DNA of 59,520 bases. Origin: Anaerolineae bacterium (GTDB taxonomy: Bacteria; Chloroflexota; Anaerolineae; B4-G1; SLSP01). Shown one piece after another: positions 7,489-31,923 of the stretch. The stretch spans positions 1-59,520 of the forward strand of contig DAOUAQ010000203.1 in NCBI GenBank assembly GCA_034433375.1, in the 5' to 3' direction. The notes under the pieces are model-generated. The model saw nothing but the letters and a program-made list of their open reading frames with translations, made no database searches and was not told where the DNA came from. The position numbers and the translations under genes are program-made. How positions within the stretch are numbered: the first letter of the stretch is position 1; each line of letters starts with the position of its first letter.

Positions 7489-7495
7489 CGCGTGT

Positions 7496-8719: not shown

Positions 8720-8738
8720 GCAAGAGGGGTGTTAGATA

Positions 8739-8788
8739 GTTAAATTTACTTACGAAGTATTATACAACGCATTACAGCCATTGTCAAG
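8739..8788 (-). promoter_or_regulatory. Consensus sigma-70-type promoter (TTGACA, 17-nt spacer, TATAAT) with a 27-bp box shared with 13230..13256
   Basis: Minus strand: -35 TTGACA (complement of 8782..8787), 17-nt spacer, -10 TATAAT (complement of 8759..8764). This is followed by ACTTCGTAAGTAAATTTAAC, which contains the dyad TACTT-CGT-AAGTA. The 27-mer at 8739..8765 is identical to 13230..13256. Confidence 0.6.
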
Positions 8789-8794
8789 TATTTT

Positions 8795-9709
8795 TTACAG
8801 CCACAACTGTTCTGGATAAACATCGCGTTCGATCAACGCGCGAATGGCGTGCTGCACCTGCGCCCGGTCTTCTTTGTACGTCACACCGAACCATTGCGCG
8901 TCGCTGGCGAGCACTTTGACGCGCGCTCTTTGTTCTTGCACCAGGTCGCCCACAATGTTGGGTAGGAAGAACTCCGCTTTCTGTAGATTGTGGGCATTAT
9001 CCCGGAGGAATATGGGAAAGCGGCGCTCCAATTCCCCGAACAGGCTCGGCGTGAAGCCCCAGATGTTCATCGAGACGGTGGTCTGCGTGGGGATGGCGAT
9101 CCAGGTCGCGCCATCCTCGGTGTAGGCGATGGTTTCCCCGCGCCGTTCGATGTGCGTGCGCTCGCGGATGTGAACGAGAAAGCCGTCGTCATCCACTGTA
9201 CAAACGCCGCGTGAGACGTGGCCGTGTTCGGTGATCGTGTTCGCCAGCACGTAGCCGACCATACAGTAGTCGTAGACGCCGTCTTTATCCTCCGCGTGGG
9301 CGAGGTGCTCGGCCAGCGCCTCGAAGGCCGCGCGCCCGTAAAAGTCATCGGCGTTGATGACCGCGAACGGCCCGGCGACCTCATCCCGGCACCTGAGCAC
9401 TGCTTGCCCGGTGCCCCACGGCTTCTGGCGTTCCGGCGGCAGCACAAATCCCGGCGGCACGTCCGTCAATCGCTGGAGGACGTAGGCGGTCTCGCTATGT
9501 TTGCCGATGGTGCCGCCAAATCTTTCACGGAAGGCATTTTCAATGGCCTGGCTGACGACGAAGACTATCTTGCCGAAGCCAGCGCGCAGCGCATCATACA
9601 CAGCATAGTCGAGCAGCGTTGCGTTATGTGGCCCCACCGGCTCGATCTGCTTGATGCCCCCATACCGGCTGCCCAACCCTGCCGCCATCACAATGAGTGT
9701 GGGTTTCAT
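8795..9709 (-). CDS. Sugar-1-phosphate nucleotidyltransferase family protein
   Basis: N-terminal nucleotide-binding signature MAAGLGSRYGGIKQ, plus KPWGTGQAV and INADDFYG. Length 304 aa. Specificity is unknown. Confidence 0.7.
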   Translation of the reverse strand: MKPTLIVMAAGLGSRYGGIKQIEPVGPHNATLLDYAVYDALRAGFGKIVFVVSQAIENAFRERFGGTIGKHSETAYVLQRLTDVPPGFVLPPERQKPWGTGQAVLRCRDEVAGPFAVINADDFYGRAAFEALAEHLAHAEDKDGVYDYCMVGYVLANTITEHGHVSRGVCTVDDDGFLVHIRERTHIERRGETIAYTEDGATWIAIPTQTTVSMNIWGFTPSLFGELERRFPIFLRDNAHNLQKAEFFLPNIVGDLVQEQRARVKVLASDAQWFGVTYKEDRAQVQHAIRALIERDVYPEQLWL

Positions 9710-17200: not shown

Positions 17201-17240
17201 GACTATCCGACTATCCGACTATCCGACTCATGACTATGTG
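17201..17240. repeat. GACTATCC octamer array (3 perfect and 2 degenerate units) just upstream of the coaX RBS
   Basis: Read directly. Confidence 0.8.
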
Positions 17241-17249
17241 GAGGAACCT

Positions 17250-18023
17250 ATGCTCTTAGCAGTCAATGTGGGCAACACGAATATTGTTTTCGGCATTCAC
17301 GACGGCGAAAAGTGGCTGCGGCATTGGCGCGTGCGCACGGTGCGCGATAAGATGCCCGACGAATACGGCGTGCTCTTCCGCGACTTTTTGCGAGAGACCC
17401 ACGTGGCGCTGGAAGCGCTGGAGCAGGTCGCCATCAGCAGCGTGGTCCCGCCGATTACCGACAGAATGGAGGAGATGCTCGTCGCGCAGACGGGCGTGAT
17501 GCCGTTGATTGTCAGCACAGCAGTGAAGACCGGGTTGACGTTCGCCATAGACAATCCGGCGGAACTGGGGGCGGATTTGGTCGCCGACGGGGTGGCCGCC
17601 TACGACCGCGTGCGGGATGCGTGCATCGTGGTGGACTTCGGCACGGCGACGACGTTCTCGGCGGTGGCGGCAGACGCGACGTACCTCGGCGTTGCCATCG
17701 CGCCGGGGATCAATATGGCGATGTCGGCGCTGGCGGGCGGGACGGCGCAACTGCCGCAGATCCGGTTGAGCGCGCCGCCGCGTCCCATCGGCACGAACAC
17801 CGTACATTCGATTCAATCCGGCATCGTCTTGGGTTACGTGGGGATGGTGGAGAGCCTCATCGCGCGTTTTCGGGAGCAGATGGGCGTCCCGGCGCCGGCG
17901 CTGGCGACCGGCGGCCTGGCGCGGTTGATCGCGCCGTTGACTTCATGTTTCGCAGTGGCGGACGAATGGTTGACGCTGGATGGCATTCGTCTGATCGCGC
18001 TGCTGAACAAGAATGGCGAATGA
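17250..18023 (+). CDS. coaX: Type III pantothenate kinase
   Basis: MLLAVNVGNTNIVFG (phosphate-1), VVDFGTATT, and a length of about 257 aa. ATG follows GGAGGA. The track ORF from 17079 is an upstream extension through a repeat array. Confidence 0.85.
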   Translation: MLLAVNVGNTNIVFGIHDGEKWLRHWRVRTVRDKMPDEYGVLFRDFLRETHVALEALEQVAISSVVPPITDRMEEMLVAQTGVMPLIVSTAVKTGLTFAIDNPAELGADLVADGVAAYDRVRDACIVVDFGTATTFSAVAADATYLGVAIAPGINMAMSALAGGTAQLPQIRLSAPPRPIGTNTVHSIQSGIVLGYVGMVESLIARFREQMGVPAPALATGGLARLIAPLTSCFAVADEWLTLDGIRLIALLNKNGE

Positions 18024-18119
18024 GCGAATCGGCAAATCGGCAAATCAGCAAATCGGCAAATCAGCAAATCAGCAAATCGGCGAATCGGCGAATCAGTGAA
18101 TCGGCAAATCAGTGAATAA
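18016..18119. repeat. 13 consecutive GCRAATCR octamers
   Basis: GCGAATGA GCGAATCG GCAAATCG GCAAATCA ... GTGAATAA, all direct. Unit 1 contains the coaX stop codon. Unit 13 contains the GTG used as the start of the next ORF. Confidence 0.9.
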
Positions 18120-19620
18120 CTCTCGACTCATAACCCCCAACTTACAACCCACACTCCTGAACCGAATCGTCTGGGTACTTCTGTTGGCGCTGCTGGTGCG
18201 TGTGGTATGGCTGGCGTTTTTCCCCACCAATCCCATCGCTCCGGTGGACGCGGAGGGATTTCATTTGCTCGCGGTCAACATGCGCGCCGGACGCGGGTTC
18301 GCTATCGGCTGGGAGCCACCCTTCTGCCCGACGATGGTGCGCACGCCGTTGTATCCGCTGTTTGTGGCCGGCATTTATGCGCTGGTCGGCGCCGATCCTG
18401 GGCGGGCGCTGCTCTTTCACCTGCTCCTTGAGGCGCTGACGACGGCGCTGGTTGTTCGTCTGGGGTGTGATCTCGGCGGCAAGCGCGTAGGGTGGTGCGC
18501 AGGATTGCTCTATGCGTGCAACGGCACGACGCAGCGTTACACCGGTTATCTTCTCGCTGAGGCGTTGCTCCTCCCGCTGCTGACTGCCTCCGTGTGGCTA
18601 ACACTGCGCTGCCTTCGCCGTCCGACGCGCAAAAAAGCCGCGCTGGCCGGCTTCTTCTGGGGATTGGCCTTGCTCACCAAACCCAACGTGCAGTTTCTCG
18701 CGTTGTTCATAGGCGGCCTCCTAACGTGGCGGATGGCGAATCACGAATTACGAATTACGAATGACGAATCACGTTTTACGTTTGACGTTTTACGTTCTAC
18801 ATTTGTTTTCTGGCTTACTCTCGGTCTGACACTGTTTCCCTGGCTGTCGCGCAACCGCATCGTGTTCGACAGGTGGGCGCTCTCCACGGCTTTCGAGGAG
18901 AATCTGGCGCGGGTGGCGGTGGTGGCGACATTGGCCGAAGTGGAGAATGTGCGCGTCGAGCCGTGGACCGAGACGTGGGAATACTACTACGACCGTTTCA
19001 GCGCGGATGCGGCAGCGCGCGACGACTGGGACGGGCGCGCGTTATGGGGTGATGGGTGCGTAGAACGGCAACGTCGTCAGGTTGCGATAACGCGCGCGGC
19101 GCGTGACCTTGTGCGCGCCCACCCGCTCAGCTATCTCCGCGCTCATCTACGCGGTGTCCTGACCAGCTTGCGCGACCCCGGGCACCGGCTGTGGTATCAC
19201 GTGCTGACCGGTGCGGAATGGGAAAGCACCGGCGTCGTCGCCGACATAGGGGCGCGGATGATGTGGGCGCTGGAGCGCGGCGCGGTAGGAGATGCGCTGC
19301 GCGCGCTGTGGCTTGAGCGGGTCGCGCGCCCGCCGTTGCTGGCGGCGCTGCTGTGGTGGGGATTGGGCGCCGCGCGCGTCGCGGTATGGATTGGGGGGCT
19401 GCGGGGGGCGTGGTGTTTGCGTCGCCGCCCGTGGGCGCTGTGGGTGTTCCTGGGGATGGTCGCCTATATAGTGATGTTACCTGGGCCTATCGCGTATGAT
19501 CGTTTCTATCTGCCGGCCATTCCGGCGGTCATTGTATTAGTCCTGACAGGTGTTTTGCAACCTGTCAGGACTGGTGGAACAATTGCTCGCGGATGTCCTG
19601 ATTGCTGGAACGCAGTTTGA
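18112..19620 (+). CDS. Polytopic membrane glycosyltransferase, GT39/GT83-like (ArnT/PMT_2 type)
   Basis: Multiple TM helices. The N-terminal region PTMVRTPLYPLFVAGIYALVG...LLLEALTTALVVRLG resembles the ArnT/PMT_2 family. The start (GTG inside a repeat) and the last ~16 codons (past a hairpin, overlapping the convergent gene) are uncertain. Confidence 0.6.
   Translation: MNNSRLITPNLQPTLLNRIVWVLLLALLVRVVWLAFFPTNPIAPVDAEGFHLLAVNMRAGRGFAIGWEPPFCPTMVRTPLYPLFVAGIYALVGADPGRALLFHLLLEALTTALVVRLGCDLGGKRVGWCAGLLYACNGTTQRYTGYLLAEALLLPLLTASVWLTLRCLRRPTRKKAALAGFFWGLALLTKPNVQFLALFIGGLLTWRMANHELRITNDESRFTFDVLRSTFVFWLTLGLTLFPWLSRNRIVFDRWALSTAFEENLARVAVVATLAEVENVRVEPWTETWEYYYDRFSADAAARDDWDGRALWGDGCVERQRRQVAITRAARDLVRAHPLSYLRAHLRGVLTSLRDPGHRLWYHVLTGAEWESTGVVADIGARMMWALERGAVGDALRALWLERVARPPLLAALLWWGLGAARVAVWIGGLRGAWCLRRRPWALWVFLGMVAYIVMLPGPIAYDRFYLPAIPAVIVLVLTGVLQPVRTGGTIARGCPDCWNAV
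18736..18805. repeat. Heptamer array (ACGAATN x5 then ACGTTTN x4-5) inside the glycosyltransferase CDS
   Basis: GCGAATC ACGAATT ACGAATT ACGAATG ACGAATC ACGTTTT ACGTTTG ACGTTTT ACGTTCT ACATTTG. Translated in frame as ..ANHELRITNDESRFTFDVLRSTFV.. Confidence 0.85.
19540..19571. terminator. Perfect 12-bp inverted repeat (GTCCTGACAGGT / ACCTGTCAGGAC, 8-nt loop) at the junction of two convergent genes
   Basis: Read directly. The right arm contains the stop codon of the minus-strand cNMP-binding gene. No clear U-tracts. Confidence 0.45.
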
Positions 19621-20038
19621 TTGCCAGTTCCGCTGCGATGCGGTGCATAATGTGGAAGCCGATTTCAGGATAATCGTAGCAGAGCTTCAGCAGGCGGTCG
19701 CGGGAGATGCGGAGGAGCTGTGTATCTGTTTTGCAGCGCGCCGACGCGGAGCGCGTGCCCTGATCCACCAGAAGGATTTCGCCGAAGGTGTCATTTTCCC
19801 TGCTGGTGGCGACGACCATCGGGGCCGTGCTGCTGTTTTGCGGTTCCATCAGGATGTTCACTTCGCCGCGCGCCACGATATAGAGCGCATCGCCGGGATC
19901 GTTTTGGTGGAAGATGTACTCGCTTCCACGATAGCTGATTTCTTCACAGACCATCAAGACCAAATCGAGATGAATTTCGTTGAGGTCGCGGAAGAGATCG
20001 GATTGTCTCAGGACCCGTTTGCTTTCTTGTAGATGCAT
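19565..20038 (-). CDS. Cyclic-nucleotide-binding (cNMP) domain protein
   Basis: SDLFRDLNEIHLDLVLMVCEEISYRGSEYIFHQNDPGDALYIVARGEV and FGEILLVDQGTRSASARC match the CAP/cNMP beta-barrel pattern. No output domain (157 aa). Confidence 0.75.
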   Translation of the reverse strand: MHLQESKRVLRQSDLFRDLNEIHLDLVLMVCEEISYRGSEYIFHQNDPGDALYIVARGEVNILMEPQNSSTAPMVVATSRENDTFGEILLVDQGTRSASARCKTDTQLLRISRDRLLKLCYDYPEIGFHIMHRIAAELAIKLRSSNQDIREQLFHQS

Positions 20039-20058
20039 CTTCGTCCTCCTGCGTTAGA

Positions 20059-20574
20059 TTACAACTCGATCCATTGAAGATTGCCCGTAGCCAAATCTAC
20101 GATAGCGCACGTTGCACAGCGCCACCGGCTGTGACCGAGCGCGCCGGGATTGATCACCCGCGTCTTGCCAATGGTCTCATCGGTGGGGACGTGGGTGTGC
20201 CCGTGGATGACGTAATCGTAAGTTGCGGCGCGGATCAAGGCTTCGAGCCGCGCCCAGCTATCCCCATGGATCAACGCGATCCGCGCGCCGTTGAAACTAA
20301 GTTCGTGGACGCGGGCCAGCCGCGCCGCGCCAAAACGTTCGGCAACTGCCAGCGGCAACTGGGGTTCGTGATCCATATTGCCCCTGGCGATCCACACCTC
20401 AAAGCCGTCCAGCAAGGCGAGGGTAAACGCGCTGGTGACGTCTCCCGCGTGTAGCACGGTCTGTACCTGCGCCTCGCGGAAGCGCGCTACGGCCATGCCG
20501 AGCGTCTGCTCGTTGTTGTGCGTATCGGAGATCAGACCGATCTGCATCATCGCGTTTTTCGCTGTGCCGGTCAA
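20059..20574 (-). CDS. Metallophosphoesterase, YfcE/MJ0936 family
   Basis: LISDTHNN, HAGDV, GNMD and IHGHTH motifs. The true start may be the MMQIG methionines, 8-9 codons downstream. Confidence 0.8.
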   Translation of the reverse strand: MTGTAKNAMMQIGLISDTHNNEQTLGMAVARFREAQVQTVLHAGDVTSAFTLALLDGFEVWIARGNMDHEPQLPLAVAERFGAARLARVHELSFNGARIALIHGDSWARLEALIRAATYDYVIHGHTHVPTDETIGKTRVINPGALGHSRWRCATCAIVDLATGNLQWIEL

Positions 20575-20582
20575 GCGCGCGA

Positions 20583-21224
20583 TCAGTTTTCGCGCGCGTC
20601 TACGACCTGCATATTGATGGCTTCCATCGCGGTGATAAGGTCGCCGCGCGCGACCCCGCGCACCTTCACCATCAGCGCCCCGCCGCCATCCGGCTGGTGA
20701 AACGTCCCCAGGGCGATGATGTCGCCGCCGAGCGCCGCGATGCTGCCGGCAATCCGGCTGAGCGCGCCCGGTTCATCAACGAGGTGCAGCGTCAGCCGCA
20801 CGCCGGTCTGGCGCGCGCCCATCATCTCCAGGATGGTCTTGAAAACGTCGGTTTCCGTGATGATCCCCACCAGACGGTCGCCATCTACCACAGGCAACCC
20901 GCCAATTTTGCTATCGGCCATAATGCGCGCGGCCTCTTCCAGCGGCGCATCCGGCGCAACGGTGATGACTTTCTTGGTCATAATCTCCTCGACCTTCAGC
21001 TTGGACAGCAGGTAGCCGACTTCGTAGACGCTGAGGCTGGTCGCCGGCGATGGCGAGGCGTAGAGCAGGTCTTTCTCCGAAATGATGCCGACGAGTTTGC
21101 GTTTCTTGTTGAGGATCGGCAAGCGGCGCACGTTGTGCTGGCGCATAAAACTCAACGCTTCGGCAACGGGCATTTCCGGGGTAATGGTCACAGGATTCGT
21201 GGTCATGCAATTTTTTACTAACAT
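20583..21224 (-). CDS. CBS-pair plus ACT domain protein (AcuB-like)
   Basis: Two CBS repeats (MTTNPVTITPEMPVAEALSFMRQHNVRRLPIL.. and MTKKVITVAPDAPLEEAARIMADSKIGGLPVV..). C-terminal ACT-like VRLTLHLVDEPGALSRIAG. ATG follows GAGGAGG. Confidence 0.8.
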   Translation of the reverse strand: MLVKNCMTTNPVTITPEMPVAEALSFMRQHNVRRLPILNKKRKLVGIISEKDLLYASPSPATSLSVYEVGYLLSKLKVEEIMTKKVITVAPDAPLEEAARIMADSKIGGLPVVDGDRLVGIITETDVFKTILEMMGARQTGVRLTLHLVDEPGALSRIAGSIAALGGDIIALGTFHQPDGGGALMVKVRGVARGDLITAMEAINMQVVDAREN

Positions 21225-21239
21225 GGTTTCCTCCTCAGT

Positions 21240-21668
21240 TTAGAACGCGCCTAACTGGCATTGTACGATACGCACCCCCAGTTGGTCGGCGACGTAGCCC
21301 ACCAGCATTTTAGGGATGGCGAACTGCGCGGCGATCTCCCACGCGCGTAAGCACACGAGCCGCCCTTCATCATCCAGCGCGGACTGGATGGCGGCCTCAA
21401 GCCCTGCGGGCACGGGATGCGCGGCCATGTTGGCAGCGTCCCAACCTTTGGTGTGCCCTGGATAGCCAAACAGGCCGAGTTGACAGTGATCGAGATGGAT
21501 CTTCAGCGCGTCGGCGTTATGCCCAACAGTGAGCGGCGCGACATTAGTTTTTTCGGCGATGATGAAAGCCTGCGCGCAGGCGATCTTTTCTTCATGACTG
21601 CGCGCGCGGATGTCGGCGGCAATCGTTGCATCTGGAACAAAGTCGGCGGGTAGCTTCTTCTCTCTCAC
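21240..21668 (-). CDS. Hypothetical protein with internal duplication; each half ends C-Q-L-G-x-F
   Basis: First gene of a tight operon. GTG start after GGAGGA. The halves ..ACAQAFIIAEKTNVAPLTVGHNADALKIHLDHCQLGLF and ..VCLRAWEIAAQFAIPKMLVGYVADQLGVRIVQCQLGAF align by eye. Confidence 0.5.
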   Translation of the reverse strand: MREKKLPADFVPDATIAADIRARSHEEKIACAQAFIIAEKTNVAPLTVGHNADALKIHLDHCQLGLFGYPGHTKGWDAANMAAHPVPAGLEAAIQSALDDEGRLVCLRAWEIAAQFAIPKMLVGYVADQLGVRIVQCQLGAF

Positions 21669-21783
21669 ATTTTCCTCCGTTAAAATTGTCGTGTCGTCGT
21701 CAGTTCCATAGTCTGGTAGACTTAGGCCCGGCTTTCTGGTCTGTATGGTTGATATGGTTCAAGAATATACTGACCTTTGAAAA

Positions 21784-21812
21784 TTGCAAGTTGCGCAGAC
21801 CCGTTGTATAAT
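21784..21812 (+). promoter_or_regulatory. Promoter for mscL (TTGCAA, 17-nt spacer, TATAAT)
   Basis: -35 at 21784..21789, 17-nt spacer, -10 at 21807..21812. The leader contains the imperfect hairpin AGACGGGTCA..TGACCGTCT. Confidence 0.55.
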
Positions 21813-21889
21813 CTTTGATGAGACGGGTCACATGAAGGTAACAGGTTGACCGTCTGTATGTATTCAACCATTTATCAAGGAGGCAGATT

Positions 21890-22333
21890 ATGTGGCAAGA
21901 ATTTAAGAAATTTGTGATGCGAGGTAATGTCGTTGACTTAGCCATCGCCGTCGTCATCGGCGGCGCTTTCGGCAAGATCGTGACATCTTTTGTCAACGAT
22001 ATTTTGATGCCGCCGATTGGGTTGTTGCTTGGCAAGGTGGACTTCACGAACCTGTTCATCAACCTTTCGGGGCAGGATTACGCGAGTTTAGCTGCCGCGA
22101 AGGAGGCCGGAGCCGCTACGATCAACTACGGCTTTTTCCTCAACACCATCCTGGATTTCATCATCGTGGCCTTCGTCATCTTCCTGGTTTTGCGCGCGCT
22201 GGATCGCCTTAAGAAGAAAGAAGAACCCGCCGCGCCCGCCGCGCCGACAACCAAGCCGTGTCCGTATTGCTTCACCGACATCCCCATCAAAGCGACCCGC
22301 TGCCCGCACTGCACGTCGCAACTGCAAGGATAG
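21890..22333 (+). CDS. mscL: Large-conductance mechanosensitive channel with a C-terminal CxxC..CxxC tail
   Basis: [44 protein letters not shown] is canonical MscL. The tail is [23 protein letters not shown]. Confidence 0.9.
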
Positions 22334-22400: not shown

Positions 22401-23438
22401 TTATGATGCCGTATCGCCCGTGACGACGGAGAACTGCATCGTGCGCAGCAGCTTCACGAACGCGGCTTGCGCTCCGGCTTCCTCAAAAATGACATACAGC
22501 GTGTCTGTTTTGCCCTTTGCATTAGGATATTGAAAGCGCGTGGCCCATTTATTCTTCCAGCCATAGATCTTTCCTGCTGTAACGTCGGTGCTGTGATCGT
22601 GGCGCAAGAAAACGCCCCAATCCGTTATCGTCGTGTTGACCGTTATCCCGTAAGTCTTGGTCTTCAGAATGTGGTGGATGTAGATCATGAGCTGCTGTTC
22701 GCCCACTGGGACGACGTTGGCGACCGCGTTGCTGAACTTTCGGGTGGTTTTTCCAACTTCGAGTGGGTCAACGCTCTTGAGCTGCGTAAATTTCCCGGTC
22801 GCCTTCACCCCGTATCGTTCGGTCGGCGGGGGAACCGTCGTGTCGAGTGGATAAGGCGCAAATACTGTGCCGGGGAAGAAGAAGGGGATGCAGCACAGGC
22901 CAACGCCGACAAGCCCGACTAACAACAGCACAATGCTGTTCCCTTTTGTAGGCGGCATTGTGCCGTCTTCGATGTACAGCGCCGTCGTCGTTCTGACATC
23001 GTTTTGGGTGAACAGCGTTTCATCCTCTTTTATGGCGTCCTTCAGGTCGGTGGGGGGCGTGCGCGTCATCCCAGTGACGGTAGCGGCGCCGTTTTGCCTG
23101 GCGACGACGAGCGCCGAAGTGTGTTTCACCAAGACCATATCACCGGTTCTGGCGTCAATGAGAAAGTAGTAAGTTTCGGTTGTTTTCCCATCCTTGCTTT
23201 TTTCGTACCCCAGGTCGTAGACTGCCATGCCGGCGACGCTGACATACCGGCTTGTGGCGACGTCGCCATTGACGAGCTGCGACACTGTCACCGTTTGCGG
23301 CGTGTCTGAATTGTTCAACGCCGTGCTGAGGCTGCCCAATCCCGCGCAAGCGACAACTGCCGCCAGGACAAGAACCAATCCACATCCCACTTTGAGACTG
23401 CCAATCCGGCCTTTCCATCGCAACACACGCTCGTTCAT
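22401..23438 (-). CDS. Hypothetical membrane protein (N-terminal TM and one internal TM)
   Basis: ATG follows AGGAGG. TM segments VGCGLVLVLAAVVACAGL and SIVLLLVGLVGVGLCCIPFFF. No family recognised. Confidence 0.5.
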   Translation of the reverse strand: MNERVLRWKGRIGSLKVGCGLVLVLAAVVACAGLGSLSTALNNSDTPQTVTVSQLVNGDVATSRYVSVAGMAVYDLGYEKSKDGKTTETYYFLIDARTGDMVLVKHTSALVVARQNGAATVTGMTRTPPTDLKDAIKEDETLFTQNDVRTTTALYIEDGTMPPTKGNSIVLLLVGLVGVGLCCIPFFFPGTVFAPYPLDTTVPPPTERYGVKATGKFTQLKSVDPLEVGKTTRKFSNAVANVVPVGEQQLMIYIHHILKTKTYGITVNTTITDWGVFLRHDHSTDVTAGKIYGWKNKWATRFQYPNAKGKTDTLYVIFEEAGAQAAFVKLLRTMQFSVVTGDTAS

Positions 23439-23573
23439 CGCGCGCCTCCTGGTTGATTGGGTTTGATTATAGTGAATTCTCTGTGTTTGACAAAAGCTGT
23501 ATTGACAGGTCTGCCAAACTGTGATACCTTTACGCTAACACGCGCTGAGATTGCACGTGGATAATTTACAAAA

Positions 23574-23705
23574 TCAACGCCGAGTGTTGAGGGCTGCGGC
23601 GCTCAACAACGGGGGAACCAGGTTGGGGGCGAATCGGCAGCGACCGTGCTGCTGTAGGGTCAGCTTCTTCGATCCGAGTCCGGCAGCTAACCTCGTAGGC
23701 GTTCT
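23574..23705 (+). promoter_or_regulatory. ydaO/yuaA-class (c-di-AMP) riboswitch aptamer
   Basis: P1 candidate AACGCC (23576..23581) pairs with GGCGTT (23698..23703). Conserved blocks recalled for the class: ACGGGGGAACCA (23609..23620), GGGGGCGAATC (23625..23635) and CCGAGTCCGGCAGCTAACCTCGTAGGCG (23674..23701). Local hairpin GTTGAG..CTCAAC. Confidence 0.7.
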
Positions 23706-23706
23706 A

Positions 23707-23747
23707 GGAGAAGGCTACCTTGTGCGACAAGGCGCCTTCTTTTGTTT
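23707..23747 (+). terminator. Intrinsic terminator (expression platform) directly after the aptamer
   Basis: AGAAGGC-TA-CCTTG-TGCGA-CAAGG-C-GCCTTCT followed by TTTGTTT. Confidence 0.7.
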
Positions 23748-23749
23748 AT

Positions 23750-23896
23750 AGCTATCAGCTATCAGCTTTCAGCCGTCAGTTATCAGCGAGCAGCTATCAG
23801 CTATCAGCTTTCAGCCGTCAGTTATCAGCGAGCAGCTATCAGCGATTGGCCTTCAAATGCAAGGGCTGACCGCTGAAAGCTGACCGCTGAAAGCTA
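23750..23896. repeat. 14 AGCNNTC heptamers (two and a third copies of a 42-nt super-unit) plus an inverted 2 x 14-nt copy abutting the RBS
   Basis: AGCTATC AGCTATC AGCTTTC AGCCGTC AGTTATC AGCGAGC, repeated (23750..23847). Then (TGACCGCTGAAAGC)x2 at 23867..23894, whose reverse complement matches CAGCTTTCAGCCGTCAG at 16 of 17 positions. Confidence 0.9.
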
Positions 23897-23906
23897 TAAA
23901 GGAGTG

Positions 23907-25862
23907 ATGATGCAGAAAATACTGGTGACGCCGGGTTCTTTCGTGGTTGGCGCGAATTATTGGGCCTCGCACGCCGGCACGGCGATGTGGCGCGAGTGGC
24001 GGGCCGATGTGGTGGAACACGATTTCAAGACGCTGTCCGAAGCGGGTTTACAAGTGTTGCGCGTTTTCCCGCTTTGGCCGGATTTTCAGCCGCTCACGCA
24101 GTTGTATGGCGGGCATGGCGACCCCGTTGAAATCCGCCACGGCGAAGCGGCGCTGCCCGCCACCGAAGCCGGACGCGCCGGCGTCTCTACCGCGATGCTG
24201 CTGCGCTTTGCGGAATTCACGCGGTTGGCGGCTCAGTACGACCTCAAACTCATCGTCGGGTTGCTCACCGGCTGGATGAGCGGGCGTTTGTTCGTCCCGT
24301 CGGCGTTGGAAGGACGCAACGTGCTCACCGACCCCGTGGCGTTGCTGTGGGAGACCCGCTTCGCGCAGTATTTCGTGCGGCAGTTCAAAGACGATCCCGC
24401 CATCGCCGCGTGGGACCTGGGCAACGAGTGCAACTGCATGGCGCGCGTCCCCGGCCACGAGGCGGCATGGGCGTGGACGGCGGCGATTGTCAACGCGATC
24501 CGCGCGGTAGACCCCGACCGGCCCATCGTCTCCGGGATGCACAGCCTCACGCCCACCGGCGAGTGGCGAATGCAGGATCAGGGCGAGCTGACCGACGTGC
24601 TGACGACACACCCGTATCCGGTTTTCACGCCGCACTGCAACCAGGACCCCGTCAACACGCTCTGCACGCAACTGCACGCTACGGCGGAATCGCTGTTCTA
24701 CGCGGACCTGGGCGGCAAGCCGTGTTTTGCGGAAGAACTTGGCACGCTGGGGCCGATGGTCGCCAGCGAAACCGTCGCCGCCGACTTCATCCGCGCCGGG
24801 CTGTTCTCGCTGTGGGCGCACGATTTGCGCGGGCTGCTGTGGTGGTGCGCCAGCGATCAGACAGAGCTGACCGATGCGCCCTACGATTGGTACGCGATGG
24901 AGCGCGAGTTAGGCTTGCTGCGCACGGATGGAACGTCAAAGCCGGTGCTCAAAGAGTTCGGGAAATTCCGCGCCTTTTTGGACAACTTGCCGCAGCCGTT
25001 GCCGCCGCGCGTCACAGAAGCCGTCTGCATCCTCAGCGCCGACCAGGATCAATGGGGCGTGGCTTACAGCGCCTTCGTCCTGGCGAAACAGGCCGGCTTC
25101 GACCTGGAATTCCAGTACGAGGCGCAGCCGCTCAAGGAGGCGGACCTCTATCTGCTGCCCTGTATCAGCTGGCATCGCGTGATCCACCGCCGCCGGTATA
25201 TGGAATTGATGGCGCGCGTAGCAGAGGGCGCGACGCTCTACATCTCCTACGCTGGCGGCTTTTTGAGCCATTTCGAGGAACTGACCGGCCTGCGCGTGCT
25301 CACGCGCGCGAAGCGGACGGGCGTTTGTAGTGCGCGCTTCAGCGCGTTGGACGCTGCGCCGCAGTTCTCGATGACCGGCGAGTACCGTCTCGCGCTTGAT
25401 CCCGTGCGCGCCGAGGTGTTGGGCGTCGAGGCAGACGGCAATCCGGCGTTCACCGTCGCGCCTTACGGCAAGGGGCGCGTCTATTTCCTGGGTTTCCCGC
25501 TGGAAATGGCGCTCACGACCACGCCCGGCGCGTTCCACACGCCGGAGGCGCAGCCGTTCTGGGTGCTTTACCGCCACATCGCGCAGCCCTTTGCGCAGGC
25601 GCGCGCCATCGTCAAACATCACCCTATGCTCGGTGTGACCGAGCATCCGCTCGATGCGCGCCGCCGCGTCGTGGTCGTCATCAACTACAGCCCTGAGCCG
25701 GTGAAAACAACGCTGGACCTGGCTTCTGGTTGGACGGTGGGGGCGGTCTGGTACGGCGCAAGCGGGCTGGAGCACGCTCCAGCCCAAGCGGAAAACATAA
25801 CACTCGCGCTGCCGCGAAATGACGCCTGTGTGATTGTTGTCGAAAATCGGATGGAATTGTAG
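23907..25862 (+). CDS. Cytoplasmic clan GH-A glycoside hydrolase with GH42-like three-domain layout (family not certain)
   Basis: N-terminal TIM-barrel pattern GANYWASHAG..DFKTLSEAGLQVLRVFPLWPDFQP. Candidate acid/base WDLGNECN and nucleophile CFAEELG. The middle domain resembles the GH42 trimerisation domain (ICILSADQDQWG..ADLYLLPCI). No signal peptide. RBS AAAGGAG. Confidence 0.7.
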   Translation: MMQKILVTPGSFVVGANYWASHAGTAMWREWRADVVEHDFKTLSEAGLQVLRVFPLWPDFQPLTQLYGGHGDPVEIRHGEAALPATEAGRAGVSTAMLLRFAEFTRLAAQYDLKLIVGLLTGWMSGRLFVPSALEGRNVLTDPVALLWETRFAQYFVRQFKDDPAIAAWDLGNECNCMARVPGHEAAWAWTAAIVNAIRAVDPDRPIVSGMHSLTPTGEWRMQDQGELTDVLTTHPYPVFTPHCNQDPVNTLCTQLHATAESLFYADLGGKPCFAEELGTLGPMVASETVAADFIRAGLFSLWAHDLRGLLWWCASDQTELTDAPYDWYAMERELGLLRTDGTSKPVLKEFGKFRAFLDNLPQPLPPRVTEAVCILSADQDQWGVAYSAFVLAKQAGFDLEFQYEAQPLKEADLYLLPCISWHRVIHRRRYMELMARVAEGATLYISYAGGFLSHFEELTGLRVLTRAKRTGVCSARFSALDAAPQFSMTGEYRLALDPVRAEVLGVEADGNPAFTVAPYGKGRVYFLGFPLEMALTTTPGAFHTPEAQPFWVLYRHIAQPFAQARAIVKHHPMLGVTEHPLDARRRVVVVINYSPEPVKTTLDLASGWTVGAVWYGASGLEHAPAQAENITLALPRNDACVIVVENRMEL

Positions 25863-25957: not shown

Positions 25958-27208
25958 GTGAACGAAAAAACTGATTACAAAGTTCGCGCCGTACACTGCG
26001 ATCACAAAGCCGCCGATGACGCCGTCTACGAGGCGCTGCGACGGGTCACGCAACCGTTGGCACGTTCCTGGGACAAACTCCGGGCGGCAAAGCGTATCGC
26101 GATCAAGTTCAACCAGGATTGGGTGCTCCATCACGTGGTCTATTTTGAGGGACAACGCCGCCAGTTGGTGAGCGACAGTGTGGCGCGCGCCGTGTTGCGC
26201 CTGCTGCGCGAGGAAACCTCCGCCGAATTGGTGTGCGTGGACGCGAGTTACTACGTGATCTATCAGGAGAACGCCAAAACCGTCGCCGACACGACGACGC
26301 TGGCAGCAATCCTGCGCGAGTTCGACGTGCCGTACATTGACGGAAGCAAGCCGCCGTACAAAGTCGTCGGCGTGCCGGGCGGCGGGCAGATGTTCGAGCA
26401 GTACGCGATGATGCAGGATGTGGTCGAGGCCGATGCGGTGGTCTCGGTGGCGAAGATGAAGAACCACGCCTATATGGGCGTCACCGCCTGTCTCAAAAAC
26501 CTCTTCGGGCTGATGCCTGTCGCTATGCCGGGCCGCTCGCGCCACTACTACCACCATCTCGTGCGGATGCCCTACATGCTGGCGGACATCGGGCGGGTCC
26601 TCAACCCGGCGCTCAATATCGTGGATGCGCTGGTGGGGCAAGCCAGCTCGGAGTGGGGGCGCGAACCGGACATCGGGCGCATCGTCAACGCGCTCATCGC
26701 CGGCGACCACGTTATCGCCACCGACGCCTGTGTGACGCACCTGATGGGCCACAATCCGCAGAGCGACTGGCTGACCGAGCCGTTCCACCGCGACCGCAAC
26801 GCGCTGCTGGCGGCGGAGGAGGGCGGCTTCGGCACGGTCAACCTGGATGAGATTGACTTTACATCCGAGGTTGCGCCGCAGCCGGAAGGCACGTTCTTCG
26901 CCAAAAAGGGCGACGATCTCAAAACCGTCGTCACCTGGCGGCGGACGATGTGCGAGCAGGCGCTCTACTACCGCGATCACATGCGCGACTTCACCGATAA
27001 GTACGCCGGTGAGTTCATCCTGCTTCAGGATGGCGAGGTGCGCTGGCACGATACCAATGGGATGCTGCGCGTGAGCCGCCGCCAGCTCTCCGGCGCGCAC
27101 TCCGACCACGCGATGTTCTTCAAGTACGTGGATCCCGAAGAGCGCGAGCGGGAGCACTACGAGGTCTATGAGAGGGCGTTACAGCACGTTCAAAGTCTAA
27201 AGTCCTGA
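25958..27208 (+). CDS. DUF362 domain protein with extra C-terminal domain (paralog 1)
   Basis: IAIKFNQ.. and VSVAKMKNHAYMGVTACLKNLFGLMP are DUF362 hallmarks as I recall them. GTG start after GGAGGA. The last codons are supplied by a heptamer array. Confidence 0.75.
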   Translation: MNEKTDYKVRAVHCDHKAADDAVYEALRRVTQPLARSWDKLRAAKRIAIKFNQDWVLHHVVYFEGQRRQLVSDSVARAVLRLLREETSAELVCVDASYYVIYQENAKTVADTTTLAAILREFDVPYIDGSKPPYKVVGVPGGGQMFEQYAMMQDVVEADAVVSVAKMKNHAYMGVTACLKNLFGLMPVAMPGRSRHYYHHLVRMPYMLADIGRVLNPALNIVDALVGQASSEWGREPDIGRIVNALIAGDHVIATDACVTHLMGHNPQSDWLTEPFHRDRNALLAAEEGGFGTVNLDEIDFTSEVAPQPEGTFFAKKGDDLKTVVTWRRTMCEQALYYRDHMRDFTDKYAGEFILLQDGEVRWHDTNGMLRVSRRQLSGAHSDHAMFFKYVDPEEREREHYEVYERALQHVQSLKS

Positions 27209-27309
27209 GTCCAAAGTCCTGAGTCCAAAGTCCAAAGTTCAAAGTCCAAAGTCGTTTGCAGTTTGACTTTCGACTTTCGACTTTCGACTTTCGACTAACG
27301 ACTACAGCA
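27191..27309. repeat. 17 heptamers: CAAAGTC-type x9, then complementary-type TTTCGAC units (imperfect long hairpin)
   Basis: Read directly. The array begins within the last 6 codons of paralog 1 and ends 3 nt before the AAGGAG RBS of paralog 2. Confidence 0.9.
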
Positions 27310-27328
27310 GCAAGGAGATTGGTTAACG

Positions 27329-28582
27329 ATGAATACACAACGTGAAAAATACTGTGTCCGCGCGCTGCATTGCGACTATCGCGCCGCGGATGAAGTCGTT
27401 TACGAGACGCTCAAACGCGCCACTGCGCCGTTGACGCGGGCGTGGGAGAAACTCAAGGCCGCGAAACGCATCGGTATCAAGTTCAACCAGGACTACGCGC
27501 CGGCCCGCACGCCGTACTTTGAAGGTCAGCGCCTTCAGCTCGTCAGCGATCAAGTGGCGCGGGCGGTGGTGCGCTTGCTCCAGGAGGAGACCGCCGCCGA
27601 GTTGTTCTTTGTGGATACCACCGTCTTCCACTTCGATGGCAGCCCCGATCCCGTGGACTCCACGCACCTGGCCCCGATCATGCGCGAGTTCGGCGTCTCC
27701 TACGTGAACGCGGACATTCCGCCTTTCGGCGTATACCAGGTCCCCGGCGGCGGGCAGATGTTCCGCCAGTACGTGCTGCCGCAAGCCGTGCTGGAAGCCG
27801 ATGCCCTGGTGGACGTGCAGCGGATGAAGAACCACGCCTTTATGGGCATTACGCTCACGCTCAAGAATCTCTTTGGCTTGATGCCGATGCGCGAGCCGCT
27901 GGGCCGTTCCCGTCAGTACTTCCACCATCTGGTGCGGATGCCTTACATGCTTGCCGACATCGGGCGGCTGTTCAATCCCACGCTGAACATTATTGACGCC
28001 CTTATCGCGCAGACGGGCGGCGAATGGAGCGCGACGGACCAGGAAGCGCCGGTGGTCGTCAACGCGCTGGTCGCCGGCGATCACCCCATCGCTACCGACG
28101 TTGTGGGGACGCACTTGATGGGCCTCGATCCCACGGCGGACTGGCTGACCGCGCCGTACCACCGCGACCGCAACCCGCTGCTCGTGGCGGCGGAGGGCGG
28201 CTTCGGGACGGTCAACCTGGACGACATTGACTGGACTTCCGAGGTTGCGCCGCAGCCGGCCGGTGTGTTCTTCGCCGCGATGACCGACGATGTGGCGCGC
28301 GTCATCTCCTGGCGACGCACCACCTGCGAGCAGGCGCTCTACTACCGCGACCACCGGCAGGACTTCATTGACAAGTACGCCGGGCAATACATTCTGCTGC
28401 AAGAGAACGAGGTCAAGTGGAATAGCGAGAGCAGCTTCTTCCGTGGCAGCCGCCGTCATCTCTCCGGCGACCGGCCCGACCAGGCGATGTGGGTCAAGTA
28501 TGTGGATCCCGACGAAGCCGAGGGCGAGCATTTCGAGGTCTACGAACGGGCGCTGGCGGATATTCAAGCGCGAGGGTTGTAG
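27329..28582 (+). CDS. DUF362 domain protein with extra C-terminal domain (paralog 2)
   Basis: Collinear with paralog 1 along the full length. VDVQRMKNHAFMGITLTLKNLFGLMP. Shared C-terminal WRRTTCEQALYYRDH..DKYAGQYILLQENEVKW. Confidence 0.75.
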   Translation: MNTQREKYCVRALHCDYRAADEVVYETLKRATAPLTRAWEKLKAAKRIGIKFNQDYAPARTPYFEGQRLQLVSDQVARAVVRLLQEETAAELFFVDTTVFHFDGSPDPVDSTHLAPIMREFGVSYVNADIPPFGVYQVPGGGQMFRQYVLPQAVLEADALVDVQRMKNHAFMGITLTLKNLFGLMPMREPLGRSRQYFHHLVRMPYMLADIGRLFNPTLNIIDALIAQTGGEWSATDQEAPVVVNALVAGDHPIATDVVGTHLMGLDPTADWLTAPYHRDRNPLLVAAEGGFGTVNLDDIDWTSEVAPQPAGVFFAAMTDDVARVISWRRTTCEQALYYRDHRQDFIDKYAGQYILLQENEVKWNSESSFFRGSRRHLSGDRPDQAMWVKYVDPDEAEGEHFEVYERALADIQARGL

Positions 28583-28748: not shown

Positions 28749-28880
28749 CCGCTAAGACGCCAAGTTCGCCAAGAGAACAAAAGAATACATAAGTAATTTT
28801 AATAAATTTGCGCATTTTTACAAATTTTATTCATTTGCTCATTAAAAACCTTGGCGTCCTTGGCGACTTGGCGGTTTTTT
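28749..28880. repeat. Inverted CGCCAAG-type repeat arms flanking a ~75-bp AT-rich core, followed by T6
   Basis: Left arm CCGCTAAGACGCCAAGTTCGCCAAG (28749..28773). Right arm CCTTGGCGTCCTTGGCGACTTGGCGG (28849..28874). T6 at 28875..28880. Confidence 0.75.
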
Positions 28881-28895
28881 CAGGGGAGTCATAAA

Positions 28896-31776: not shown

Positions 31777-31923
31777 GCTGGAAACTGGAAGCTGGATACT
31801 GGAAGCTGGATACTGGAAACTGGAAGCTGGAAGCTGGATACTGGAGAGTACTACTCGCAACTCTTAACTCTTAACTCTTAACTCTTAACTCTTTACTCTT
31901 TACCAATCACCAATCACTTGAGG
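31777..31923. repeat. 21 heptamers in three blocks: CTGGAAR-type x10, CTCTTAA-type x6, CCAATCA x2 (direct)
   Basis: Read directly. Fills almost the whole rnc-clpC spacer. Confidence 0.9.

Follow-up and report, generated by a model that had tools for sequence, protein, structure and literature searches.

Riboswitches of the c-di-AMP (ydaO) class, Rfam family RF00379, have been associated with K+ transporters, amino-acid transporters, cell-wall remodelling and the osmotic shock response (PMC7266159). Validated members include the leaders of kdpFABC in B. thuringiensis and B. anthracis, of kimA and ktrAB in B. subtilis and of ablA in Dehalobacter. OFF switching has been validated for kdp (PMC6488665) and for Dehalobacter ablA (PMC9337991), and kimA and ktrAB are described as OFF in the summary of PMC11302148. 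A structural role has been assigned to the pairing between a loop of the aptamer and its 3′ tail (PMC5393176). We found no publication on c-di-AMP riboswitches in Chloroflexota, and no description of a glycosidase/DUF362 gene set as a c-di-AMP target in the literature. The gene association reported here appears to be new.

The window, by which we mean the whole 59.5-kb stretch of DNA that was analysed, was scanned with cmscan against all of Rfam 15. RF00379 was the single match, and it covers the full model (positions 1–134 of 134; E = 3e-16). A comparison with the Rfam threshold had been put forward as a check by the sequence-only reading, which had seen a ydaO-class riboswitch and a terminator upstream of a glycosidase/DUF362 operon; the score of 77.3 bits is well over the gathering score of 38, and the match, the predicted fold and the gene annotation all bear this reading out. 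The three sequence blocks on which it relied are present (ACGGGGGAACCA at 23610–23621, GGGGGCGAATC at 23626–23636 and CCGAGTCCGGCAGCTAACCTCGTAGGCG at 23674–23701), and the closing helix AACGCC/GGCGTT can form between arms at 23576–23581 and 23698–23703. It also holds that no ORF explains the stretch, with none of at least 80 aa over 23439–23903 on the plus strand. In the cmscan alignment the highly conserved consensus positions of RF00379 are all matched (ACGGGGGA.CC, GGGG.GAAUC, GUAGGG and CCGA..CCG.CAGCUAACCUCG). The conserved core, with the presumed nucleotides of the two ligand pockets, is retained in this match and in the alignment with the crystallised RNA and Bacillus members. The Rfam helices were recovered by RNAalifold from seven relatives, with compensatory double changes in 9 of 36 pairs, and an A-U pair in P3 is replaced by G-C in L001 with pairing kept. 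The minimum free energy (MFE) fold of 23560–23750 consists of the aptamer helices and a separate hairpin with a stem at 23705–23744 (−79.2 kcal/mol, z = −4.1, equalled by none of 200 shuffled sequences). The aptamer itself is ordinary, a new representative of a known riboswitch class. Promoter, aptamer, terminator and the first gene follow each other on the same strand (Table 1), and a riboswitch of the c-di-AMP class very probably acts in cis on the glycosidase/DUF362 operon. We infer that c-di-AMP is the ligand and that its occupancy alters the efficiency of termination. Cyclase families of the DisA_N/CdaA type had no Pfam match among the approximately 24 ORFs of the window that were scanned.

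Table 1. Features of the leader and the operon, with positions in the window.
Feature	Position	Strand	Details and basis
Promoter	23502–23530	+	−35 TTGACA (23502–23507); 17-nt spacer ending in TGA (extended −10); −10 TACCTT (23525–23530); leader alignment
5′-proximal leader hairpin, upstream of aptamer	23539–23559	+	CACGCGC ... GCACGTG; inverted repeats in relatives
c-di-AMP riboswitch aptamer (RF00379)	23568–23717	+	P1 is 23577–23581 with 23698–23702; covariance-model match
Pseudoknot 5′ strand	23664–23670	+	CUUCUUC, hairpin loop of last aptamer stem; conservation among leaders
Intrinsic terminator	23705–23747	+	Two-part stem (23705–23715 with 23734–23744; 23718–23723 with 23727–23732), loop GCG, U tract TTTTGTTT (23740–23747); fold, conservation
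Pseudoknot 3′ strand	23707–23713	+	GGAGAAG, also 5′ base of terminator stem; complementarity and fold
Heptad tandem-repeat array with inverted counterpart	23750–23895	+	AGCTATC-type (23750–23843); GCTGAAA/GCTGACC (23865–23895); TRF, fold
Shine-Dalgarno sequence of first gene	23901–23904	+	GGAG, 5 nt before ATG at 23910; read from sequence
GH5-like cytoplasmic glycosidase, ~650 aa	23910–25862	+	Likely start ATG 23910 (ORF listed from GTG 23904)
DUF362a, 416 aa, predicted LarA-like fold	25958–27208	+	PF04015, 100.6 bits (cut-off 24); predicted structure
DUF362b, 417 aa, paralogue of DUF362a (61% identical)	27329–28582	+	PF04015, 99.9 bits (cut-off 24)
Probable operon end	28759–28881	+	Long inverted repeat 28759–28774 with 28861–28875, then TTTTTT; read from sequence

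The promoter was missed by a simple consensus scan, its −10 element agreeing with TATAAT at three of six positions, and became visible in the leader alignment, where TATTGACA-N14-TGn-TAnnTT is aligned in seven of eight homologous leaders. From this arrangement, transcription would start near 23537. The 5′-proximal hairpin of the window is imperfect (one C/A mismatch); inverted repeats of different sequence occupy the same place in L111, L081, L088 and L002, and a role such as transcript stabilisation may be assumed. Downstream of the terminator, the heptad array (period 7, 13.4 copies; period 42, 2.2 copies at 100%) forms a long hairpin with its inverted counterpart (centroid −50.6 kcal/mol). 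This array is missing from L111, L002, L084 and L086 and is a strain-specific insertion outside the switch.

The first gene had been described as a cytoplasmic, GH42-like glycosidase. Inspection by eye gave no N-terminal signal peptide, and the downstream gene set, a cytoplasmic glycosidase followed by DUF362 genes, is otherwise as described, but the GH42 assignment did not stand. With Pfam, no match to the Glyco_hydro_42 catalytic domain was obtained, and the scores for Cellulase/GH5 (PF00150; 21.8 bits, cut-off 23.5) and GH42M (19.5 bits, cut-off 25.8) are both under the respective cut-off. GH42 is represented only by this sub-threshold match to its trimerisation domain. The nearest solved relatives are GH5 enzymes, with PDB matches of 1e-19 to the endo-beta-mannanase 7bob and 1e-13 to GH5_18 beta-mannosidases (range 1e-19 to 1e-9). 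In the family alignment of 25 homologues, N174-E175 and E278 do not vary; we take these to be the catalytic motifs of clan GH-A. The start codon was chosen by alignment with L001 and L002. As judged from sequence comparison, the glycosidase is GH5-like, of the mannanase/mannosidase type, and not GH42. The two following genes belong to DUF362, a large family of unknown function, and separate orthologues of DUF362a and DUF362b are found in all related loci. PDB sequence searches with DUF362a and its profile gave nothing useful, and only the fold search was informative: for the AlphaFold model (pLDDT 88, pTM 0.91) the top 15 PDB fold matches are all LarA-family racemases (Foldseek probability 0.96–1.00, E 4e-5 to 4e-3). 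The model indicates that DUF362a has a LarA-like fold. Since this fold is accompanied by obligate a/b pairing and by neighbouring genes for a DHDPS-type aldolase, an enolase-superfamily dehydratase, ThuA and Gfo/Idh/MocA enzymes, the predictions point to sugar or 2-hydroxy-acid chemistry for the DUF362 pair. The operon probably ends near 28880.

In Chloroflexota, an RF00379 riboswitch stands ahead of this gene set in ten distinct leaders, and the homologous leaders score 61.5–84.6 bits. The relatives were found by Rfam scans and with a purpose-built covariance model (R1), which superseded a strict motif regular expression that, applied to the first 80 loci, caught just the two closest relatives. 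Viral contigs scanned with a 14-base pattern gave 79 loci with one real aptamer (L175). Every GH5-like locus of at least 69% identity that has upstream sequence carries the riboswitch, and every riboswitch locus that reaches far enough downstream carries the DUF362 pair. An MFS transporter gene comes first after the riboswitch in four of the ten leaders (L084, L086, L250 and L253), and two loci have the order riboswitch-MFS-DUF362a-DUF362b without the glycosidase. Neither riboswitch nor DUF362 pair was found at approximately 150 GH5-like loci of 66% identity or less. Because riboswitch loci can do without the glycosidase and distant glycosidases occur without riboswitch or DUF362 pair, the conserved regulated core, as read from these sequences, is the DUF362a/b pair, usually together with the MFS transporter, the glycosidase or both. 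The unusual target noted in the sequence-only reading thus gains strength from an association that is kept in ten leaders. Adjacency to MscL was considered as a functional hint and dropped as independent evidence, being confined to closely syntenic loci.

The loop CUUCUUC of the last aptamer stem is unchanged in eight of the ten leaders (GUUCUUC in L086, CUUCCUC in L250). With GGAGAAG it forms a duplex of 7 bp and −9.0 kcal/mol; in the MFE fold the latter strand pairs instead with 23736–23742. In the alignment, the counterpart of the loop in the T. tengcongensis RNA of known crystal structure (4QLM; sequence from PMC5393176) is CUCCUUC, to which the 3′ tail GAAGGAG of that RNA is complementary. 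Across the class, the two strands vary yet remain complementary (CUCCUUC/GAAGGAG, CUUCUUC/GAAGAAG, CUCUUUA/UAGAGAG and CUCUC/GAGAG). Crystal structures of the class likewise give this pairing of loop and 3′ tail a structural role. The strong terminator that had been proposed directly after the aptamer was also found: the hairpin has −20.3 kcal/mol in the window, and each of the ten leaders has a hairpin and U tract at the same position (−17 to −24 kcal/mol). Differences between its arms preserve pairing as read from the alignment (GGC..GCC in the window versus GGACACC..GGTGTCC in L084 and L086). No spacer lies between the pseudoknot 3′ strand and the terminator, and this strand supplies the terminator pairs G13-C36, A12-U37, A11-U38 and G10-C39, which adjoin the U tract. 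If the strand is blocked, the terminator loses 5–16 kcal/mol in ten of ten leaders. For the window and the four leaders closest to it (L111, L001, L088 and L081), approximately −20 kcal/mol is reduced to −6.8 to −9.3 kcal/mol, which leaves a bulged 8-bp hairpin with CUUCUUUU after it. In L002, L086, L250 and L253 the terminator core still has approximately −11 to −15 kcal/mol.

We favour an account in which the conserved sigma-70-type promoter would start transcription near 23537 and the leader would fold into the ydaO-class aptamer, including the pseudoknot between CUUCUUC and GGAGAAG. At the terminator, RNA polymerase would then halt or continue into the three-gene operon. Bound c-di-AMP would lock P1 and the pseudoknot, the terminator core would form and transcription would stop, so that the operon would be on at low c-di-AMP, as are the K+ and osmolyte systems of the class elsewhere. 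In this account of riboswitch, terminator, operon control and OFF direction, the last of which is the class default and preferred by a small margin, we have moderate confidence as a whole. The validated members named above are all OFF. Pseudoknot and terminator can coexist in L002, L086, L250 and L253 because the terminator core survives there with the strand blocked, which speaks for an OFF switch. The transporter-first order in L084, L086, L250 and L253 fits, by analogy, the pattern of the class. A regulated core of DUF362a/b with MFS transporter, glycosidase or both in front suggests that the operon may take up and convert a glycoside or a solute of the sugar-acid type, in connection with osmotic or cell-envelope homeostasis.

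An OFF switch needs an antiterminator for the ligand-free state, and folding, shuffling and conservation across the leaders yielded no credible one. An extended antiterminator of GUAGGGU...CUUCUUC with GGAGAAGG..ACCUUG (−13 to −18 kcal/mol) was rejected, as shuffled arms give similar energies (0.15–0.72 of the shuffles equal or exceed it). This structure is the pseudoknot helix prolonged into the 5′ arm of the terminator at the cost of the last aptamer stem. Two candidates picked by eye, a GUAG:CUAC fold-back of P3 and the 3′ strand of P1 and an AAGG-NNN-CCUU mini-hairpin, are weak, and nascent segments fold differently from leader to leader; in L001 the relevant fold-back base is changed, with compensation in P3 and none in the terminator. 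Additionally, the hairpin that is left in the window and the four nearest leaders when the strand is blocked would be a poor terminator in the ligand-bound state, which argues against OFF. That a terminator directly after the aptamer is the layout of an OFF switch had been proposed before; the adjacency is real, but the step to OFF is unsafe, because the 5′ base of the terminator is the pseudoknot strand itself. In Dehalobacter, the OFF call rested on an aptamer separate from the terminator (PMC9337991), and the window has no such separation. [quoted passage not shown] For comparison we used three reference leaders, a kdpF-type leader (a type validated as OFF), L249 in front of an APC-family permease gene, and L175 (the latter two untested). 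The OFF mechanism of the kdp-type leader and of L249 is likewise not derivable from simple folding, so polarity calls from sequence deserve limited weight.

A serious rival, which we nevertheless regard as somewhat unlikely, has the same aptamer and terminator acting as an ON switch. Here GGAGAAG(G) would pair either with the aptamer loop or with the terminator 3′ strand CCUUCUU. Without ligand, the pseudoknot would be labile and yield its purine strand to the terminator 3′ strand; the complete hairpin of −20 kcal/mol would then form against the U tract and end transcription. With c-di-AMP bound, the pseudoknot would be locked, leaving only a weak and poorly placed hairpin, and read-through would follow. 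The operon would be induced at high c-di-AMP, for example for removal or export of solutes at excess turgor. Such a switch would make use of the position of the pseudoknot strand right beside the U tract and of the energy lost on blocking it, which is shared by all ten leaders and largest in its consequence in the five closest, and it does without the antiterminator that we failed to find. It would also agree with the rule that overlap of aptamer and terminator stem predicts ON, as for the Na+ riboswitch of the same study, and separation OFF (PMC9337991), and with the fluoride riboswitch, in which a pseudoknotted aptamer and a terminator platform act together as an ON switch (PMC11077080). Also in favour of ON, the terminators of the three reference leaders lie 20–45 nt past the pseudoknot strand and are independent of it. 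Against ON, no member of the class with this behaviour was found described in the literature. In L253, L250 and L002 the strong terminator core does not need the pseudoknot strand, and termination there would go on with the pseudoknot locked; a single polarity would be expected for homologous leaders of one operon. What makes the overlap in the window strong is a single U-to-C difference in the U-proximal strand (CCUUCUUUU versus CCUUUUUUU in L081), any purine tract ahead of a terminator pairs with its U tract, and the same abutting layout occurs in L247, a leader from a Firmicute upstream of a gene for an amino-acid permease. The fuller form of the ON reading, which we offer tentatively and consider unlikely, is that the clade uses an ON switch by which high c-di-AMP would induce a heteromeric LarA-like DUF362 enzyme with MFS transporter and/or GH5-like glycosidase, which would dispose of or convert a compatible solute of glycosidic or sugar-acid nature at times when turgor has to drop.

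It is improbable that the leader, with its aptamer intact, is mainly a constitutive attenuator or RNA-stability element on which the ligand has little effect or acts through Rho, RNase access or translation. No clear antiterminator and no clean mutual exclusion runs through all ten leaders, which would suit such an element, as would the 146-nt repeat hairpin that separates terminator and ribosome binding site in the window and makes translational coupling to the aptamer unlikely. This insertion, however, is missing from the closest relative, L111. Furthermore, aptamer core, pseudoknot and terminator position are kept while the downstream proteins diverge to 69–73% identity and the gene order differs, which is difficult to account for unless ligand-dependent control is under selection. 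A ydaO fold in which c-di-AMP has been replaced as the ligand by a metabolite connected with the glycoside or sugar-acid pathway could be imagined from the atypical gene context and from the c-di-GMP-I variants that sense c-AMP-GMP, but is highly improbable in view of the fully matched conserved positions, a score far over the threshold and a core in which no clade-specific substitution was seen in the alignment with the crystallised RNA and Bacillus members.

The interest of the locus lies in what the aptamer controls and how. The presence of the riboswitch assigns a conserved, uncharacterised gene set to the c-di-AMP response of Chloroflexota, and riboswitch-gene links have repeatedly led to the functions of unknown genes (PMC7266159). 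The strand common to terminator and pseudoknot provides a compact test case for the ON direction in this class. If ON should be true, c-di-AMP would gain a positive transcriptional output and the DUF362 family its first physiological context.

Compared with the RF00379 class, the RNA is alike in its full-length model match, helices, core, loop-to-3′-tail pseudoknot and the arrangement of 5′ leader and intrinsic terminator, whereas its host belongs to the Chloroflexota (Anaerolineae) and its target operon lies outside the associations named in PMC7266159. The terminator of the kdpF-type, L249 and L175 leaders begins further on and that of the window on the pseudoknot strand; similarly, the aptamer of Dehalobacter ablA stands apart from its terminator (PMC9337991) and that of the window abuts it. 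On the enzyme side, the glycosidase resembles 7bob, the GH5_18 enzymes BlGH5_18 and ScGH5_18, and 6gvb in its TIM-barrel catalytic domain, but it is under the Pfam GH5 cut-off, and the C-terminal part of its ~650 aa is weakly like the GH42 trimerisation domain. The fluoride crcB and ZTP/pfl RNAs are transcriptional ON riboswitches that use competition between pseudoknot and terminator. Their aptamers and ligands are unrelated, and the stretch shared in the window is the lower third of the stem, and in several relatives 1–2 nt; competition over so short a stretch may not suffice to determine termination. DUF362 has been placed in the LarA clan CL0471 (PMC11770544). The best PDB matches of the DUF362a model are LarA, malate racemase and LarA-like enzymes, a likeness of predicted fold with TM-scores of only ~0.35 and no match at the sequence level. 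[quoted passage not shown]

The whole 59.5-kb window was scanned with 4227 Rfam families at their gathering thresholds, and RF00379 (c-di-AMP, ydaO/yuaA leader) was the sole match, covering the full model with 77.3 bits (E 3e-16) against a gathering score of 38. Folding of nucleotides 23560-23750 gave the aptamer helices and a separate strong hairpin ending in TTTTGTTT (-79.2 kcal/mol, z = -4.1). Among seven relatives, the Rfam architecture was recovered by RNAalifold, with compensatory changes in nine pairs. A sequence-only reading had proposed a ydaO/yuaA-class riboswitch plus terminator in a stretch without an ORF. This finding is real and its main interpretation right; an ORF scan detected no ORF covering the region, and the quoted sequence blocks as well as the closing helix AACGCC/GGCGTT are all in the window sequence. 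Judged by sequence and predicted fold, the leader RNA is a further member of the known RF00379 class, in agreement with all membership tests run, and the straightforward reading would be that it senses c-di-AMP and acts via the terminator.

Coordinates of the riboswitch leader and of the operon that follows it
Feature	Position	Strand	Basis or remark
Promoter	-35 23502-23507, -10 23525-23530	+	alignment of homologous leaders
Small 5′ hairpin	23539-23559	+	just after inferred start; recurs, with differing sequences, in four relatives
RF00379 match	23568-23717	+	Rfam scan
Aptamer P1	23577-23581 with 23698-23702	+	fold/Rfam architecture
Pseudoknot strands	23664-23670 with 23707-23713		CUUCUUC with GGAGAAG
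Intrinsic terminator	23705-23747	+	-20.3 kcal/mol; begins on pseudoknot purine strand
Heptad-repeat array, long hairpin	23750-23895 (146 nt)		between terminator and RBS
RBS GGAG	23901-23904	+	start ATG 23910
Gene 1, GH5-like glycosidase	23910-25862	+
Genes 2 and 3, DUF362a and DUF362b	25958-28582
Inverted repeat after DUF362b	28759-28881		CGCCAAGTTCGCCAAG with CTTGGCGACTTGGCG, about 85 nt apart, then TTTTTT; probably the operon terminator

We compared ten leaders, those of the window and of related Chloroflexota loci with the riboswitch ahead of DUF362a/b. In the last aptamer hairpin, the loop CUUCUUC is identical in eight of them (GUUCUUC and CUUCCUC in the others) and is complementary to GGAGAAG, 4 nt past P1. 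When the crystallised T. tengcongensis RNA (sequence from PMC5393176) is aligned, CUCCUUC of its loop and GAAGGAG of its 3′ tail fall at the same positions, which identifies the predicted pairing as the class's own pseudoknot. Elsewhere the strands vary yet remain complementary, as in CUCUUUA/UAGAGAG (kdpF-type), CUCUC/GAGAG (B. mycoides) and UCCUUC/GAAGGA (locus L175). The locus L248 (Bacillus sp. N5-665, NZ_CP093325) carries two full RF00379 aptamers on the same strand about 1 kb apart (1807-1954 and 2940-3085; 112 and 115 bits); the second lies ahead of a kdpF-like short ORF and the first has no obvious terminator.

The terminator uses the pseudoknot strand itself (G23710-C23739, A23711-U23738, A23712-U23737, G23713-C23736), so that the spacer is zero, a layout that appears unusual. 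The earlier argument, that a terminator directly after the closing helix has the arrangement of an OFF switch, therefore needs correcting. Weighing the class prior against leader anatomy, we give the OFF direction, in which bound c-di-AMP causes termination, about an even chance. Validated members in the literature consulted are all OFF: kdp of B. thuringiensis (PMC6488665) and of B. anthracis (PMC11302148), kimA and ktrAB of B. subtilis (summarised in PMC11302148) and Dehalobacter ablA (PMC9337991). [quoted passage not shown] In contrast to ablA, no spacer separates aptamer and terminator in the window. An OFF switch needs an antiterminator, and none was found by leader folding, which counts against this direction. 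Shuffled controls did as well as the most attractive candidate, and local hairpins were not conserved. The OFF mechanism of the kdpF-type reference leader was likewise not reconstructed by the same simple methods, so they have limited ability to assign polarity from sequence.

Fluoride and ZTP riboswitches use competition between pseudoknot and terminator. The same competition here would make c-di-AMP an ON signal for read-through, which we consider possible but rather unlikely. It is favoured by the loss of 5-16 kcal/mol from the terminator in all ten leaders when the pseudoknot strand is blocked in silico; what is left in the window and its four nearest relatives is just a bulged hairpin of -6.8 to -9.3 kcal/mol, with CUUCUUUU after it. 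However, the terminator core in L002, L086, L250 and L253 holds about -11 to -15 kcal/mol, with an overlap of only 1-2 nt with the pseudoknot, the 'strong' overlap of the window comes down to a single U-to-C difference in the U-proximal strand, and any purine tract ahead of a terminator pairs with the U tract anyway. Outcomes other than OFF or ON are improbable.

The promoter is conserved among homologous leaders (TATTGACA, 17-nt spacer with TGn at its end, TAnnTT). A simple consensus scan did not report 23502-23530 because the -10 element matches TATAAT poorly. The repeat array behind the terminator is missing in the closest relative L111 and in L002, L084 and L086, which marks it by comparison as an insertion and no part of the switch. 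Further intergenic gaps hold tandem arrays of 7- or 8-nt units (17201-17228, 18015-18117, 18733-18794, 27191-27303, 31777-31900). Both the leader array, with a 42-nt unit in 2.2 copies at 100% identity, and that at 27191-27303 are followed by their own inverted counterpart. In appearance, these arrays resemble a genome-wide repeat element that is expanding, in the style of cyanobacterial STRR repeats. A giant ORF (47116-57807, +; 3563 aa) contains an 18/36/54-nt tandem array at 55247-55452, in which the 18-nt unit recurs about 11 times.

Upstream, a syntenic block (19565-22333) encodes a cNMP-binding protein, a metallophosphoesterase, a CBS+ACT protein (20583-21224, -) and MscL (21890-22333, +). 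L081 retains this block; in L001, L002, L088 and L111, MscL alone lies upstream. In other phyla, proteins with CBS domains act as receptors of c-di-AMP, and MscL serves as a valve for osmotic release. This adjacency was dropped as independent evidence since it is present only in closely syntenic loci. The divergent upstream gene (22401-23438, -; 345 aa) matches nothing in Pfam or NCBIfam, and in L081 and L002 a 703-aa protein takes its place (annotation in L081: DUF6345).

Rfam scans and R1, a covariance model from this clade's leaders, were applied to 160 loci that encode GH5-like homologues, taken from collections of genomes and metagenomes, and to further contigs holding specific homologues. 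The riboswitch was present in every locus with upstream DNA and a glycosidase at least 69% identical: L001/L090 (90%), L111 (88%), L088 (87%), L081-83/L089 (84%), L002 (79%), L084/85 (73%) and L086 (69%). The scans detected none in about 150 loci at or below 66% identity, of which a few are uninformative because their contigs are short upstream. By tblastn, glycosidase and DUF362 pair occur together only in riboswitch-bearing loci. In L084 and L086, one or two MFS transporter genes stand between riboswitch and glycosidase-DUF362a/b, and L084 continues with ThuA, Gfo/Idh/MocA and xylose-isomerase-like TIM-barrel genes. A search from DUF362a added two lineages that lack the glycosidase, L250 and L253, with the order riboswitch-MFS-DUF362a-DUF362b; L250 continues with a DHDPS-type aldolase and an enolase-superfamily gene. 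The single-DUF362 loci L251 and L252 carry no riboswitch. This distribution indicates that the conserved unit is the riboswitch with the DUF362a/b pair, transporter and glycosidase being frequent partners. In L251 (Litorilinea aerophila, 6980-9251), a DUF362 homologue 65% identical to DUF362a directly follows an MscS-type mechanosensitive channel gene, a further tie of this subfamily to osmotic-stress genes.

Gene 1 had been called GH42-like, a family assignment that needs correcting: its nearest solved relatives are the GH5-type endo-beta-mannanase 7bob (1e-19) and GH5_18 beta-mannosidases, and Pfam gave only sub-threshold matches to GH5 'Cellulase' and the GH42 trimerisation domain. N-E(175) and E278 do not vary among 25 homologues, and we regard them as the catalytic residues of clan GH-A; no signal peptide was seen by eye. 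Genes 2 and 3 are paralogues (61% identical). The top 15 PDB matches of the confident DUF362a AlphaFold model (pLDDT 88) are all LarA-family nickel-pincer racemases (Foldseek probability 0.96-1.00), in agreement with the shared Pfam clan of DUF362 and LarA_N (PMC11770544). An alignment of 22 sequences of the DUF362a/b subfamily shows no variation in the motifs K168-N169-H170 and H199-H200. Given the LarA-like fold, they may form part of a cofactor or metal site; the LarA residues for comparison are Lys184, His200, His108 and His174. Genes for FtsH, RNase III and a Clp ATPase, beyond a 470-nt gap with the terminator-like inverted repeat, were treated as separate transcription units.

The combination of an MFS transporter, a retaining beta-glycosidase and a LarA-like pair, with neighbouring genes of the kind found in sugar, sugar-acid or 3-keto-glycoside catabolism, suggests that the operon imports and converts a glycoside or hydroxy-acid solute. 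If the switch is OFF, expression would occur at low c-di-AMP (osmotic up-shift or K+ limitation), as for genes of osmolyte uptake and synthesis; if it is ON, the operon would clear such a solute at high c-di-AMP. A literature text search for c-di-AMP riboswitches with Chloroflexi, with supplementary gene lists outside its reach, returned nothing relevant. The conserved regulon appears new, and the gene lists of earlier surveys might include such loci. Reviewed targets of the class are K+ and amino-acid transporters, cell-wall remodelling and osmotic response (PMC7266159), whereas the glycosidase, the DUF362 pair and, in relatives, the MFS transporter that follow the riboswitch described here are not on that list.
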